DNA of 64,000 nucleotides, from contig NZ_JACRSQ010000001.1 in assembly GCF_014384895.1 (NCBI RefSeq), positions 99,493-163,492 of the forward strand, in the 5' to 3' direction. The DNA is from Bianquea renquensis. Lineage in GTDB: Bacteria > Bacillota > Clostridia > Lachnospirales > Bianqueaceae. The position numbers and the translations under genes are program-made. The notes under the pieces were generated by a model, which was given only the letters and a program-made list of their open reading frames with translations, was not told where the DNA came from and did no database searches. Shown here piece after piece: positions 12,929 through 58,652 of the stretch (the first letter of the stretch is position 1; every line of letters starts with the position of its first letter).

Positions 12929-12982
12929 CCATAGAAAAGCCCGCCGGGAGGCGGACCTAATTTAAGTTCGCGGGGTGCGAAG
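12929..12982. repeat. Copy of a dispersed two-hairpin intergenic repeat (ATAGAAAAGCCCGCCGGGAGGCGGAC + AAGTTCGCGGGGTGCGAAG)
   Basis: Shares the TCCGCC-GGGA-GGCGGA hairpin and the AAGTTCGCG..GCGAA hairpin with the copies at 40521-40588 and 58329-58652. On the minus strand it reads as a terminator for the convergent DUF4364 gene. Confidence 0.55.
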
Positions 12983-12983
12983 A

Positions 12984-13511
12984 TCACTGCGATTTTAAAT
13001 CCTGCAATAGATTTCGATACAGAGACATCCCCTTTTTTAACCAGTTGTTGCGGATGATGTTGGCTTCCTCCTCCGACGAGACGTTGACTTGGAAATCCAG
13101 AATCGTGCGGTCGTAATCCTTGACGCGGCATTGAACCTGGCGCCGTTCGCCGTCATCCATTTGATGAACCTCAGCCTCGATCCGCAACATAGAGGAACTG
13201 TTGAGCCGGGATGTCTGGACATATTCGTTGATCTCCATTCGAATGCTGTGTGGGATCCGGGACTTAAACAGCTCCAGTATCTCCATACCTTGGGGGTATA
13301 GCGTGTAGACAGTCCGGTTTTCATCCTTCTGTTCACAGATGAGCTTTGCCTCCGCCAACTCATTCACATATTGCTGCAATGTAAAATAATCCATGTATCC
13401 TTTAAAAAGAATATAGTCAAAAAGATCGATACGCGTCATATCGCCTTTTTTCTGTATGAGATAGAGCACAATGAGTTTGTTGCTGGTGAGATGGTTATAG
13501 TTTGCGTTCAC
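12984..13511 (-). CDS. DUF4364-family protein
   Basis: The ..NKLIVLYLIQKKGDMTRIDLFDYILFKGYMDYFTLQQYVNELAEAKLI.. pattern is typical of DUF4364. A GTG start at 13511 is preceded by a strong RBS AGGAAAGGGGGA; the ORF-track start 13691 lies in AT-rich upstream DNA. Confidence 0.5.
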   Translation of the reverse strand: MNANYNHLTSNKLIVLYLIQKKGDMTRIDLFDYILFKGYMDYFTLQQYVNELAEAKLICEQKDENRTVYTLYPQGMEILELFKSRIPHSIRMEINEYVQTSRLNSSSMLRIEAEVHQMDDGERRQVQCRVKDYDRTILDFQVNVSSEEEANIIRNNWLKKGMSLYRNLLQDLKSQ

Positions 13512-13649
13512 TCGGAGTCCCCCTTTCCTAAGGAAAATATGTTCTCCTTTTTCTATTGTACTTGATTTACCCTTAAATGTAAAGGGGATTTTTGGATACA
13601 GGGTCAATATATAAAAGACACGGAGAGGGGACGTCTTTTCAAAATGGCC

Positions 13650-13678
13650 TTGACATTTTCCTGAGAACAACGTATAAT
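13650..13678 (+). promoter_or_regulatory. Sigma-A-type promoter for the hisS-aspS leader
   Basis: TTGACA (13650-55), a 17-nt spacer, then TATAAT (13673-78). Confidence 0.5.
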
Positions 13679-13689
13679 AGTGGACAATC

Positions 13690-13925
13690 AAGGAAATCGT
13701 TGAGCAGTGAGGAGTAGCCGGGGAGAAGCTTTTCAGAGAGAGGGACGAGGGTGGAAGTCTCTCAAGCGTTCACCGCGTGAAGACACCTGGGAGAGGCTCT
13801 GGACGGGCACGGTCGCCGCCGTTATGGGCGTTAAGAGGAAGAAGGCGTATGCGTTCTTTAAGCAGGGTGGCACCGCGAGATATCTCGTCCCTTTTGGGGG
13901 CGTTTTTTTATTATTTTTTTGCGAA
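13690..13925 (+). promoter_or_regulatory. T-box riboswitch leader (tRNA-sensing antiterminator) preceding hisS
   Basis: A conserved T-box sequence AGGGTGGCACCGCG (13864-77) is followed by a GC-rich hairpin and a U-tract (..GTCCCTTTTGGGGGCGTTTTTTT) just before the hisS RBS. The AGAGA (GA-motif) lies in the 5' stem region and a CAC His codon is present in the candidate specifier region. Confidence 0.6.
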
Positions 13926-13938
13926 TGGAGGATATAGC

Positions 13939-55876: not shown

Positions 55877-55881
55877 TTAGA

Positions 55882-56652
55882 ATGAGATTCTTGCGTCTAT
55901 TGAGGGAACATCTCAGACAGGCGCTATCCTGGCGGCTAGTCGTATGCGGGGTGGGCGTCACGCTTGTCATGACAGGAGCAATTTCGGGGTTGATCGTTGA
56001 TTCGTCAGAGCCTTCTGTCTGGTATATGTTGAATAAAAGCATATTGGGAAGTGGAGCATTCTCGACAGCGATCTGTATTTTGCCGGCGCTGACCTACTCG
56101 GTCACGCTGCCCATGGAGTGGAAGGCGTCCGCAACTCCCTATTGGATCGTGCGGACGGGGATTTCGCCCTACGCCATCTCAAAGATGATTGTCAGTGCCG
56201 TTGCAGGGTTGCTAACCCTTGCCGTTGGGATGCTGCTCTTTGTCGGGATTTTCAGCATCAGGTATCCTATATATATATCGTCATGCACCGACACTGCCTA
56301 TGACGCATTGCTGGCGGAGGGGAAGATCGCAGCTGGTTTGGCAGGCTATATCCTGAATTACAGTTTATCCGGGGCGCTGGCGGCTGCATGTGGTACGTTT
56401 GTGGCCACCTTTATCCCCGACCCGTTTGTGGCGGCCTCGTCGCCGCTCCTTGTGTATTTTACCTTGACGCGCCTGACATCGGGAAAGAACCTGCCAGGGA
56501 TCTTAAATCCCCTCTTCTGGATGGAAGGAATCGTGGCGACGTCCTCCGCTGGGCAGGCGATTTTGGAGAAGTTCATCGTGATTGCCATCCTATGTACCGG
56601 AATGAGTCTCGCAGCAATCTGGCAGATGAAACGGAGGGTGCGAAATGCATAG
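55882..56652 (+). CDS. ABC-2-type transporter permease (LanE/G-like, 6 TM)
   Basis: Polytopic hydrophobic 256-aa protein with no soluble domain, first of three genes ending in an ABC ATPase. Confidence 0.5.
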   Translation: MRFLRLLREHLRQALSWRLVVCGVGVTLVMTGAISGLIVDSSEPSVWYMLNKSILGSGAFSTAICILPALTYSVTLPMEWKASATPYWIVRTGISPYAISKMIVSAVAGLLTLAVGMLLFVGIFSIRYPIYISSCTDTAYDALLAEGKIAAGLAGYILNYSLSGALAAACGTFVATFIPDPFVAASSPLLVYFTLTRLTSGKNLPGILNPLFWMEGIVATSSAGQAILEKFIVIAILCTGMSLAAIWQMKRRVRNA

Positions 56653-57508
56653 CGTCAAGGCAATGGTTCTCTGTGTTAGAATCAGTCTATCCAAGCTTCT
56701 ATCCAATCCGAAAACCTATGTCATGTTGGCCATCATGGCGATTTTTCATTATTACAGCTATGCGCCCCTGGCGACTATCGCCAGATACTATGGGATATCC
56801 GTGACGCCGTGGGTATTCCCCTTCTACATGTCGAGGGCGCCGATGCTGACGGTGTTTGGGGGGCTGTGTATCTTACTGTTCTCCGATGCTCCCTTCCTAG
56901 ACGCCTATTCCCAGTTTATCATTGCGCGCTGTGGGCGGCGGCCCTTTATCGTAGGCCAAGTTCTGTATATCCTGGCCGCTTCCTTTCTCTTTACGGTGTG
57001 TATGGTTTTGCTGTCGCTGCTGTATATCCTGCCAGTGATGGAGTGGAGCACCGACTGGGGGACGCTGCTGAATACGCTGGCGCAGTCGTCGTTAGAGGTT
57101 CGGGAGCAGACAGGCGTGACCCTGTCCATCAGTGTCAGTGAGGAGTTTCTACAGCTAGTATCGCCCATAAGGGCGATGTCGGTGGCATTCCTCTGCATGT
57201 GGCTGGTGACAGCCTTCCTCGGACTCATAATAAGCTTCTTCAATGTGGTGGTGACGAAGATGAGTGGAGTTGTAGCGGCAGGGGTGCTGGTGAGTCTCTC
57301 GTTTTTTGCCGTCTATTGGGGTGCTAACAGCATCGGGCGATGGCTGCTGTTTATATCCCCGGTGTCCTGGAGCCGGATGGGCGACTTGGATTGGACTTAC
57401 AGTGGAATGTGGCCGTCGCCGACATACGCAGTGGTGGTGCTGACAGTGGGGATTGTCCTGTTGGGGACCGGCAGCGCGATCAAATTTTGCCGGCGGGATC
57501 TGAACTGA
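56645..57508 (+). CDS. ABC-2-type transporter permease (second subunit)
   Basis: 287-aa polytopic membrane protein overlapping the upstream gene by 8 nt and followed by the ATPase. Confidence 0.5.
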   Translation: MHSVKAMVLCVRISLSKLLSNPKTYVMLAIMAIFHYYSYAPLATIARYYGISVTPWVFPFYMSRAPMLTVFGGLCILLFSDAPFLDAYSQFIIARCGRRPFIVGQVLYILAASFLFTVCMVLLSLLYILPVMEWSTDWGTLLNTLAQSSLEVREQTGVTLSISVSEEFLQLVSPIRAMSVAFLCMWLVTAFLGLIISFFNVVVTKMSGVVAAGVLVSLSFFAVYWGANSIGRWLLFISPVSWSRMGDLDWTYSGMWPSPTYAVVVLTVGIVLLGTGSAIKFCRRDLN

Positions 57509-57526
57509 GAGAAGGGAGAGAGGAAA

Positions 57527-58189
57527 ATGGCAACATACGCGGTGGAGGTCAAAAAGGCAGTGAAGGAGTTTAAGGAGACGAAGGCGCTGGACGATGTTAC
57601 GCTGTCCTTCGAATCGGGGAAAATCCACGGGATCGTCGGGCGGAACGGCTCCGGCAAGACAGTGCTCCTGAAATGTATCTGTGGGTTCATGGAACTGACG
57701 TCGGGACAGATTCTTGTCCAGGGACAGAAGGTGGTCCCCGCCAAACCTCAGAATATTGGGATTATCATAGAAAGCCCAGGATTTATCGGGTCGCAGAGCG
57801 GATTCAAGAACTTGTACCATCTGGCTTCTCTGAATGGAAAGTTGACGCGCCAGGAGGTGGAAGGGGTGATCAAGCTGGTGGGATTGGATCCCCAAAATAA
57901 GAAGCCGGTGCGGAAATACTCCCTTGGGATGCGGCAGAGGCTGGGAATCGCCCAGGCTATCATGGAAGATCCGCCACTGCTGCTTTTGGACGAGCCCATG
58001 AACGGCCTGGACAATCAGGGGGTGGCGGACGTGCGGGTGATTCTGGCCAGACTGCGGGACGAGGGGAAAACCATCATTCTGGCCAGCCATAGCAAGGAGG
58101 ATATCGACATCCTGTGCGATACAGTCTGCGAACTGGACCACGGCCGTCTCATCCACAGGCGGGAGGCGGAGAGTCAAATCGATGCATAA
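57527..58189 (+). CDS. ABC transporter ATP-binding protein (short ABC-2 family ATPase, LanF-like)
   Basis: Walker A GRNGSGKT, a Q-loop, signature SLGMRQR, Walker B LLLLDEP and an H-loop ..ASH.. in 220 aa. Confidence 0.85.
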   Translation: MATYAVEVKKAVKEFKETKALDDVTLSFESGKIHGIVGRNGSGKTVLLKCICGFMELTSGQILVQGQKVVPAKPQNIGIIIESPGFIGSQSGFKNLYHLASLNGKLTRQEVEGVIKLVGLDPQNKKPVRKYSLGMRQRLGIAQAIMEDPPLLLLDEPMNGLDNQGVADVRVILARLRDEGKTIILASHSKEDIDILCDTVCELDHGRLIHRREAESQIDA

Positions 58190-58328
58190 AGTGTCCCCCG
58201 GCGGAATAGGCTACTAACAGAATGCGTAGCCGGACAAAGGCGCAGGGGGATCCAGCATGTGGGATAGAAAACGAAACGTTGGCTTTGGAAGGCTTTCCGG
58301 AACGAAAGAGACCGGAGAGCTTTTTTGT

Positions 58329-58652
58329 CCATGGAAAAATCCGCCGGGAGGCGGATTAAAATGAAGAAGCGAAGATTCTTCCAAAGTTCGCGAAGCGAAC
58401 TTATTTGTCCTATGGAAAAATCCGCCGGGAGGCGGATTAAAACGAAGAAGCGAAGATTCTTCCAAAGTTCGCGAAGCGAACTTTTCTGTCCTATGGAAAA
58501 ATCCGCCGGGAGGCGGATTAAAATGAAGAAGCGAAGATTCTTCCAAAGTTCGCGAAGCGAACTTTTCTGTCCTATGGAAAAATCCGCCGGGAGGCGGATT
58601 AAAACGAAGAAGCGAAGATTCTTCCAAAGTTCGCGAAGCGAACTTTTCTGTC
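58329..58652. repeat. Tandem array of four 81-bp repeat units (two hairpins per unit), in frame with the downstream M23 peptidase ORF
   Basis: Units begin at 58331, 58412, 58493 and 58574 with the unit sequence ATGGAAAAATCCGCCGGGAGGCGGATTAAAA[T/C]GAAGAAGCGAAGATTCTTCCAAAGTTCGCGAAGCGAACTT[A/T]T[T/C]TGTCCT. Each unit contains hairpins AATCCGCC-GGGA-GGCGGATT and AAGTTCGC-GAA-GCGAACTT. The same family occurs at 12929-12982 and 40521-40588. Confidence 0.8.

Follow-up and report, generated by a model that had tools for sequence, protein, structure and literature searches.

A probable new family of composite hairpin repeats in the gut bacterium Bianquea renquensis, one array of which overlaps the start of a Peptidase_M23 gene

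Bianquea renquensis is a human-gut bacterium and the only species in the family Bianqueaceae (Clostridia). The stretch of its genome analysed here, called the window, comprises 64,000 nucleotides (contig NZ_JACRSQ010000001.1, positions 99,493 to 163,492 of the forward strand), and three of its proteins are identical to RefSeq proteins of the species. The window has a GC content of 52%, and its genes, all of them housekeeping genes, lie nearly all on the + strand. Short repeats built from hairpin-forming modules were found between three pairs of neighbours: the genes of an EngB-type GTPase and a DUF4364 protein, the L32 gene (rpmF) and the his operon, and an ABC-ATPase gene and a Peptidase_M23 gene. 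By exact-protein look-up, the window was extended leftward, which gave access to a fourth locus, referred to below as the outside locus, about 3.4 kb left of window position 1. In this way, about 77 kb of B. renquensis sequence was covered (the window plus 13 kb of flanks). The repeats probably constitute an undescribed, lineage-restricted family of composite, or mosaic, interspersed repeats of the general kind of the BOX elements and the bacterial interspersed mosaic elements (BIME). A literature search returned no paper on repeats in B. renquensis.

The shared modules are collinear at the three window loci and comprise a CC(T)ATGG linker, a first hairpin (H1) with a 7-8 bp GC-rich stem and a GNRA loop (GGGA, GCGA or GAAA), and one or two A/T-flanked hairpins closed by C-GAA-G, termed H2 (GAAGAAGCGAAGATTCTTC) and H3 (AAAGTTCGCGAAGCGAACTTT), followed by a T-rich tail. 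The number and the order of the modules vary among the loci. H1 (20 nt) and H3 (21 nt) are imperfect palindromes predicted to fold. The hairpin apices are conserved, and the stems vary among H2, H3 and the versions found in other species. For the repeat folded as RNA, z-scores are about -4, and for DNA they are -5 to -6 (-4.0 and -5.3, respectively, for the three-hairpin unit of the array). The two simpler loci in the window are composed as follows:

12928-12982, + strand: locus 1, a probable member, with a CCCATAG linker variant, H1 at 12939-12956 (loop GGGA) and a 9-nt spacer
12965-12982, + strand: second hairpin of locus 1, decayed (AAGTTCGCG-GGGT-GCGAAG), with only AAGTTCGCG and a 5-bp stem left
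40521-40589, + strand: locus 2, with a GGGAAAG flank, H1 at 40526-40543 (GTCCGCC-GCGA-GGCGGGC, one G-T pair) and a 9-nt spacer
40553-40571, + strand: second part of locus 2, H3-like with two mismatches, followed by a T-rich tail and by CCTATGG at 40583-40589

A first-pass annotation made from the sequence alone had placed the repeats at 12929, 40521 and 58329-58652, and motif counts in the window bear this out. The H1 core TCCGCCGGGAGGCGGA, with up to two mismatches, was matched six times (12940, 40527 and 58340/58421/58502/58583, all on the + strand) against 0.08 expected, and the H3 motif AAGTTCGCGAAGCGAACTT, with up to three mismatches, five times (40553 and four in the array) against 0.01 expected. 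Every copy of H1, H2 and H3 in the window and its flanks is on the + strand. The GC skew of the window is positive all along (+0.05 to +0.18), and in Bacillota a positive GC skew marks the + strand as the leading-strand sequence. According to BLAST and alignment, H3 is exactly identical over 24-25 nt between the array and the outside locus, with 24 nt identical to array unit 1 including its ATTT tail variant. Moreover, linker, H1 and second hairpin are collinear across seven aligned sequences, drawn from the three window loci, the flanking outside locus and two foreign contigs. The earlier naming of the flanking genes was also accurate, both at these loci (EngB/DUF4364, L32/his) and at two partial copies discussed below (RelA, Band_7/flotillin). 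As for the two-hairpin unit proposed at the same time, the collinearity of H1 with a second hairpin stands; the array units, however, have three hairpins each, and the second hairpin at 12929 is decayed.

Locus 1 sits between the convergent genes engB (+) and DUF4364 (-). Read on the minus strand, its H1 is followed by CTTTTCT, 28 nt past the DUF4364 stop codon. The repeat part is identical in six other strains, the sole difference being one base in the adjacent engB terminator. Locus 2 is flanked by the terminator hairpin of rpmF (40483-40506) and by the promoter of hisZ, and is identical in two other strains. No empty site was seen at loci 1 and 2 among these strains (six and two, respectively). 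Judged by their sequence, the array and locus 2 can be regarded as certain members of the family, and locus 1 as a probable, partly decayed one. Some 90 nt after locus 2, the hisZ promoter (40680-40708, +) carries a perfect 12/12 sigma-70 consensus, TTGACA-17-TATAAT.

The third locus is a tandem array. Tandem Repeats Finder reported it at 58320-58652 with a period of 81, 4.1 copies and 97% matches. It consists of four 81-bp units (27 codons) with three hairpins each, and two unit variants, A and B, alternate along it. H2 lies between H1 and H3 in each unit and was found, within the window, only here. The array and its surroundings contain the following features:

58292-58326, + strand: hairpin resembling a terminator, belonging to the ABC-ATPase gene upstream (GCTTTCCGG-11 nt-CCGGAGAGC, then TTTTTT), abutting unit 1
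58329-58408, + strand: unit 1 (80 nt, A variant), with a CCATGG linker, H1 at 58338-58357 (AATCCGCC-GGGA-GGCGGATT), ATG at 58361, H2 at 58363-58381, H3 at 58383-58402 and the tail ATTTGT
58347-58351, + strand: Shine-Dalgarno (SD) sequence GGAGG, one half lying in the loop of H1 and the other in its 3' arm, with a 9-nt spacer before the in-frame ATG at 58361-58363
58409-58489, + strand: unit 2 (81 nt, B variant), with a CCTATGG linker, H1 at 58419-58438, ACG in place of ATG, H2 at 58444-58462, H3 at 58464-58484 and the tail TTCTGT
58490-58570, + strand: unit 3 (81 nt, A variant), with the ATG at 58523 that gene callers take as the start of a 240-aa product
58571-58652, + strand: unit 4 (B variant), whose 3' end CTTTTCTGTC runs straight into the codons of the transmembrane helix LFCLVLVCIVYGCSL
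58574-59245, + strand: Peptidase_M23 (M23) gene in its shortest version, 223 aa, starting at ATGGAAAAA of unit 4

A consensus terminator scan flagged H3 with its tail on the + strand in two of the four array units and at the flanking locus; it missed the hairpin at 58292-58326, the loop of which exceeds 8 nt. Each unit contains TAAAAT, with no acceptable -35 element, and the promoter scan found nothing within the unit. Four units are present in the window, in the long-read-like contig L039 and in protein P0004 from a metagenome-assembled genome (MAG), one unit in the JGI contig L040 and two in protein P0001. Short-read metagenome assemblies either end at the array (L041, L042) or bridge it with 100 N (L037/L038, 10860-10959). 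The array is open on the minus strand too, where a spurious 316-aa open reading frame (ORF) runs antisense to M23 (58214-59164, -).

The array overlaps the start of the M23 gene in frame, so the earlier statement that all copies are intergenic fails here. The ORF 58325-59245 is open through the four units into the Peptidase_M23 domain (PF01551, E=1.5e-14), and the array stays in frame because a unit equals 27 codons. The hydrophobic helix LFCLVLVCIVYGCSL begins exactly at the end of the last unit, and the frame is closed upstream of the array. Hence, every start that gives a cytoplasmic tail plus a membrane anchor lies inside a unit. The only usable SD sequence and start codons of the gene are indeed held by the array. 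The SD-linked ATG of units 1 and 3 gives MKKRRFFQSSRSELFCLVLV..., units 2 and 4 have ACG at this position, and ATGGAAAAA is present in every unit without an SD sequence. Gene callers return a product of 223 aa for the one-unit contig L040 and of 240 aa elsewhere. P0004 (ACLR23_16700, NCBI MAG) is a frameshifted 203-aa 'hypothetical protein' which reads through the array units and represents an annotation artefact.

M23 homologues at about 50% identity have a basic tail of 13-17 residues followed by the helix; their tail sequence is unrelated and contains no repeat. Two of these homologues lie in syntenic relatives, L232 and L233/L234, where the gene has a plain SD-ATG 5' end, and no family module was found in 18-20 kb of their sequence. 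The conserved gene order comprises RNase H or a neighbouring gene, M23 and, further on, NrdR and a UvrD/PD-(D/E)XK-type helicase gene. In B. renquensis, RNase H and M23 are separated by a block of about 4 kb (window 53544-58189), with the array at its right-hand junction. The block contains an AT-rich 560-nt spacer, four genes without Pfam match (137, 378, 256 and 287 aa) and the ABC ATPase. It is absent from L232 and L233/L234 and is probably an insertion in the B. renquensis lineage. No sigma-70-like promoter was detected between the ABC gene and the M23 start (58190-58330), and M23 may be expressed by transcripts that read through the hairpin at 58292-58326, or with the help of another sigma factor. 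On this comparison of sequences, the 5' end of M23 is built from the repeat element in this lineage. Copies in foreign contigs suggest that the element preceded the gene, rather than the tail of the gene seeding the family.

At the outside locus, the repeat lies between a promoter-like TTGTAA-16-TATAAT (10/12) and the start of a DUF1846 gene, and it exists in two forms. The long form (strains L223 and L226) reads CCTATGG-G-H3-ATTTA-CCTTAAGG-A-H1(GTCCGCC-GAAA-GGCGGGC)-ATAGT-H3-ATTTATTTGT. The short form (L224 and L225) reads CCTATGG-G-H3-ATTTATTTGT and is 58 nt shorter. The difference is exactly one H3+linker+H1 module, located between two identical 25-nt copies of H3, and recombination or slippage between these direct repeats fits it well. 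Collapse during assembly was considered as the cause and rejected, because the short form occurs in the long-read-like L225 (probably a long-read assembly, with many frameshift-split genes) and the long form has unique sequence. The 'four or more loci' announced at first thus amount to three in the window and a fourth just outside it; the partial copies counted with them, at 672 and 31251, are not demonstrable members.

Another length difference among strains was observed in the clpP-clpX spacer (window 6796-6811). An insertion of 187 nt is present in two strains (L223 15980-16166, L226 12930-13116) and missing from the window, L224 and L225. It is bordered on both sides by CATAGT(G/A), resembling a target duplication, and has no similarity to the hairpin family or to any other fetched sequence. 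It may be a separate small mobile element. The two strains carrying it are those which also hold the extra H3+H1 module upstream of the DUF1846 gene.

The combination of a CCTATGG-type linker, H1 and a C-GAA-G-loop hairpin recurs in two contigs from gut metagenomes. In L064 (45% GC), it is located upstream of argS and reads H3'-TTTTATCCTATTGG-H1-8 nt-AAAGAACCGAAGGTACTTT. In L071 (50% GC), it follows a GH3 gene and reads CTGTCCTATGG-H1-8 nt-GAAGGAACCGAAGGTTCTTT; over 31 nt, this copy shares 93.5% identity with an array unit. The second hairpins of both contigs have another stem sequence and keep the C-GAA-G apex. Among the matches listed, the word AAGTTCGCG downstream of H1 occurs only at B. 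renquensis loci. The best match of a permease encoded on L071 has 81% identity, in a database that includes B. renquensis proteins. Since there is no match above this value, L071 comes from another organism. No family copy was present in about 60 kb from the relatives found with this permease.

H1 alone is not informative. Metagenome contigs (RAAARNCCGCCGSGAGGCGGR) and viral contigs were scanned with the H1 pattern, and nearly all of the metagenome matches, at least 120 in number, were generic terminators; the useful ones were L061 (corresponding to locus 1), L064 and L071. The roughly 146 unrelated H1 matches among those listed come from soil bacteria, high-GC taxa and phages and are ordinary AAAA-CCCGCC-G(G/C)GA-GGCGGG-TTTT terminators. 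In BLAST, unrelated terminators match locus 1 as well as the array does. Because the H1 core with its A-rich flank is so frequent in unrelated genomes, H1 by itself is not evidence of membership. The second hairpin is more telling. At loci 1 and 2, H1 is followed after 9-11 nt by AAGTTCGCG or AAGTTTGCG, and a linker-like CCCATAG or CCTATGG is also present. None of the approximately 146 unrelated H1 matches listed has AAGTTCGCG within 60 nt downstream. The association of H1 with a second hairpin at 12929 and 40521 is therefore not due to chance. Viral contig scans with the H1 pattern, linker+H1 or H3 gave chance matches or none, and BLAST of the array against plasmids and phages gave no match. 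The two partial copies belong to the generic material:

679-694, - strand: hairpin, not a demonstrable member, CCGCC-TGGC-GGCGG then ACTTTTTTAT, adjoining the relA + strand terminator at 630-664
31251-31270, + strand: non-member next to the Band_7/flotillin gene, identical over 12 nt (CCGGGAGGCGGA) and lacking a matching 5' arm, a linker and a second hairpin

The site at 672-698, adjoining the RelA gene, has an H1-like hairpin only, with a GCCA loop. It was flagged as a minus-strand terminator at 680-693 and is indistinguishable from a generic one.

Several observations weigh against a family of the kind proposed here. A scan of species-representative genomes with CCGCCGSGAGGCGGN{5,35}AAGTTYGCG returned 36 single chance matches, all of them from high-GC taxa; Bacillota yielded nothing. 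Either canonical H1(GSGA)+H3 pairs are rare outside the region, or that collection lacks the source genome or has it masked. The family could even be confined to this region of about 65 kb. Membership of locus 1 rests mainly on the 9-mer and a linker variant, H1 being generic. Furthermore, four loci are known, all in one orientation, and statements on distribution are correspondingly weak. The one- and two-unit versions of the array (L040, P0001) come from assemblies which possibly collapsed the repeat, and all reliable assemblies have four units.

Other readings of the same sequences were considered. The least probable is that there is no family at all and that GC-rich intrinsic terminators have converged. 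It accounts for the fact that the H1 core and its A-rich flank match unrelated terminators equally well, and it explains the sites at 672 and 31251, for which alone it is tenable. It is refuted for the array, for locus 2 and for the outside locus: H3 is exactly identical over 20-25 nt between the array and the outside locus, AAGTTCGCG or AAGTTTGCG follows H1 at loci 1 and 2 and in none of the roughly 146 unrelated matches listed, and the modules keep their order across the seven sequences. It is also very improbable that the unit is a genuine protein repeat, i.e., a repeated N-terminal domain of M23 from which fragments were copied to the other loci. The in-frame unit of 27 codons, the ORF open through four units and the inclusion of one or two units by gene callers speak for it. 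The same modules, however, are non-coding or in other frames elsewhere, one organism has H1-H2 upstream of argS and a second one has it behind a GH3 gene, and the homologues have only the short tail of 13-17 residues, without repeat. The unit nearest the gene, moreover, has ACG instead of the SD-linked ATG, and the opposite strand of the array is open too, as in BOX arrays (PMC3049150). Mobilisation in trans by the transposase of an insertion sequence, as in MITEs (transposable elements of the miniature inverted-repeat type), is unlikely. The copies are short, highly structured, intergenic and dispersed, the two palindromic H3 copies around H1 look like 19-nt inverted repeats with a 39-nt core, and the presence of the family in at least three organisms could mean horizontal spread. 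Nonetheless, the label 'MITE-like' used in the first-pass annotation found no support. The search for inverted repeats yielded hairpin stems and the self-palindromic H3 only, and no terminal inverted repeats; target-site duplications were looked for and not found, no direct repeats flank loci 1 or 2, and no filled versus empty sites were seen, loci 1 and 2 having the same repeat in every strain examined. The sole polymorphism is an internal module between identical 25-nt direct repeats. In addition, the sequence is not AT-rich, and no transposase was found among the genes in the approximately 77 kb of window and flanks.

A system like that of the repetitive extragenic palindromes (REPs) and their paired forms (REPINs) is improbable, somewhat more so than a MITE. 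In such a system, single-stranded DNA hairpins on the lagging-strand template would be recognised by a REP-associated tyrosine transposase (RAYT) or another HUH enzyme. H3 contains GCGAAGC, and the apices of H1 and of the H2 type, C-GNNA-G or C-GAA-G, are mini-hairpin motifs. DNA motifs of this type (GCGNAGC, GCGNNAGC) are extraordinarily stable and are used at single-stranded priming sites (PMC13037366). The DNA fold z-score of -5 to -6 is in line with this reading, as is the location of all copies on the strand of positive GC skew, hence the leading-strand sequence, which would put their hairpins on the lagging-strand template. In BIMEs and REPINs, however, REPs alternate or are inverted (PMC2817692, PMC3337134), and here all copies have one orientation and no inverted doublets were seen. 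This orientation equally fits the direction of transcription of nearly all neighbours, no RAYT or Y1 transposase gene occurs among the genes in the 77 kb, and a high copy number is unproven. At locus 2, at the outside locus and at 672, the imperfect pair in H1 is G-T (G-U) when the + strand is read, and at locus 1, where a minus-strand gene ends 28 nt away, it is so on the minus strand; this pattern, anecdotal as it is, fits RNA-level pairing in the local direction of transcription. A bolder version is just as improbable. In it, mini-hairpins with GCGAAGC and C-GNRA-G apices would be extruded from the lagging-strand template, and a single-strand-specific enzyme of HUH/RAYT-like or primase-like type would copy or process them; Clostridia would then have a REP-type system of their own, shared by distantly related gut species, in which the arrays keep one orientation and do not form inverted doublets. 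Like mobilisation as a MITE, a selected cis-regulatory or protein-binding RNA (an attenuator, an SD-masking operator or a sponge with GGA loops), in place of a selfish or neutral repeat, is an unlikely explanation. The outside locus, with H3 followed by T-tails, has a 10/12 promoter on one side and the DUF1846 start codon on the other, H1 half-sequesters the M23 SD, apices are conserved while stems vary, and a weak CsrC-like match was obtained (19 bits, the gathering score being 61, with E=0.0013 when 601 nt were searched). On the other side, the positions are heterogeneous (5' leader, between convergent genes, terminator-promoter gap) and the neighbours have unrelated functions, natural strains can do without one module, the element is missing from syntenic relatives, and no Rfam family reaches its threshold for it. 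With Rfam 15 at permissive thresholds, the three loci and the 53.5-54.1 kb spacer gave nothing credible, the best scores for the repeats being 19-20 bits against thresholds of 46-61. The sole Rfam family above threshold in the window is the T-box leader RF00230 upstream of hisS-aspS (13691-13895, +), which scored 98.3 bits where the gathering score is 93. An origin that is CRISPR-like, tRNA-like or from a group II intron was also considered and rejected, as there are no spacers, no tRNA and no Rfam match.

Under the reading as a composite repeat family, the elements would be carried passively in the transcripts of their neighbours, as 5' leaders or 3' trailers. Recombination or slippage between identical modules would add or remove modules, and the same may apply to the 81-bp array. 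The hairpins might act as attenuators or terminators, with H3 and its T-tail working on the + strand and H1 on the minus strand, or as RNA-stability elements, and they might also protect 3' ends. The suggestion that the minus-strand reading of H1 is terminator-like proved sound at the sequence level, and the same is true of H3 on the + strand. Read in the minus direction, H1 runs into TTTTTCC, CTTTTCT or CTTTCCC; of the minus-strand sites, only 680-693 was flagged in the scan. At M23, the element would have been co-opted, with H1 carrying the SD sequence, which it may partly mask, and the unit carrying the start codon. H2 and H3 would then encode the short basic cytoplasmic tail MKKRRFFQSSRSELF ahead of the transmembrane helix.

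Catalogues of small interspersed repeats are good for Proteobacteria, streptococci and neisseriae, and hardly exist for those gut Clostridia that are uncultured or were cultured only recently. Nothing in the present case is surprising in kind, and a known phenomenon would be extended to a new lineage. The co-option at the M23 start is its most interesting feature: a repeat appears to donate the ribosome-binding site, the start codon and the N-terminal tail to a conserved cell-wall hydrolase gene which is ordinary in the relatives. The in-frame tandem repeat is also a candidate that might tune the M23 gene. In practical terms, the repeat breaks short-read assemblies and causes mis-annotation, such as M23 called with 223 or 240 aa and the product P0004.

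Among known systems, bidirectional intrinsic terminators resemble single modules. H1 is of the same type as AAAA-stem-GNRA-stem-TTTT, and H3 with its T-tail scores as a + strand terminator. Ordinary terminators, in contrast, are not collinear multi-module repeats, are not located between promoter and gene and encode no start. The MIRU minisatellites of Mycobacterium, attributed to Supply et al. 1997, are reportedly tandem repeats of 40-100 bp present at multiple loci, between co-oriented genes. They share with the array a unit length which keeps frames open, small ORFs overlapping the start of a neighbour and a potentially variable copy number. Unlike the present repeats, MIRUs are not hairpin mosaics, and the 81-bp array has four units in all reliable assemblies. 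The Rickettsia palindromic elements (RPE) are said to have been described by Ogata et al. 2000 as single elements of 100-150 bp inside genes. RPE are likewise palindromic repeats in frame in functional genes, adding residues without destroying the protein; the B. renquensis element differs in forming the 5' end of the gene (SD, start and N-terminal tail) and in being tandemly repeated. RPE are also mentioned in PMC3049150. Like REP, BIME and REPIN sequences, with their imperfect palindromes of about 20-40 nt, the family consists of short imperfect extragenic palindromes, often near terminators, that are joined with linker motifs into mosaic arrays and for which roles in termination, attenuation and mRNA stability have been proposed (PMC2817692, PMC3049150). 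Those elements, however, alternate in orientation, are tied to a RAYT gene that usually has REPs at its sides and exceed 100 copies per genome, whereas the B. renquensis copies are co-oriented and have no RAYT in the 77 kb.

The first-pass description of the family as REP/BOX-like was apt, as it resembles composite REP/BIME or BOX repeats. Composite small interspersed repeats as defined in PMC3049150 are matched by modules that are collinear at the three window loci, the flanking locus and on the two foreign contigs. In architecture only, the closest analogue would be the BOX element of Streptococcus pneumoniae (boxA-boxB(n)-boxC). BOX elements are composite, with variable tandem inner modules, are highly base-paired and form 5' or 3' adducts to operons; their large arrays have ORFs on both strands and can supply start codons (PMC3049150). 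They are almost restricted to mitis-group streptococci and S. suis (PMC3049150), in contrast to the present host from the Clostridia (Bianqueaceae). The module sequences and sizes differ as well, and BOX has terminal inverted repeats resembling ISSpn2, none of which were seen in the B. renquensis repeat. Like BOX, nonetheless, the B. renquensis repeat is composite and base-paired, contains tandem modules, would be co-transcribed with its neighbours, is open on both strands in its array and supplies a gene start.

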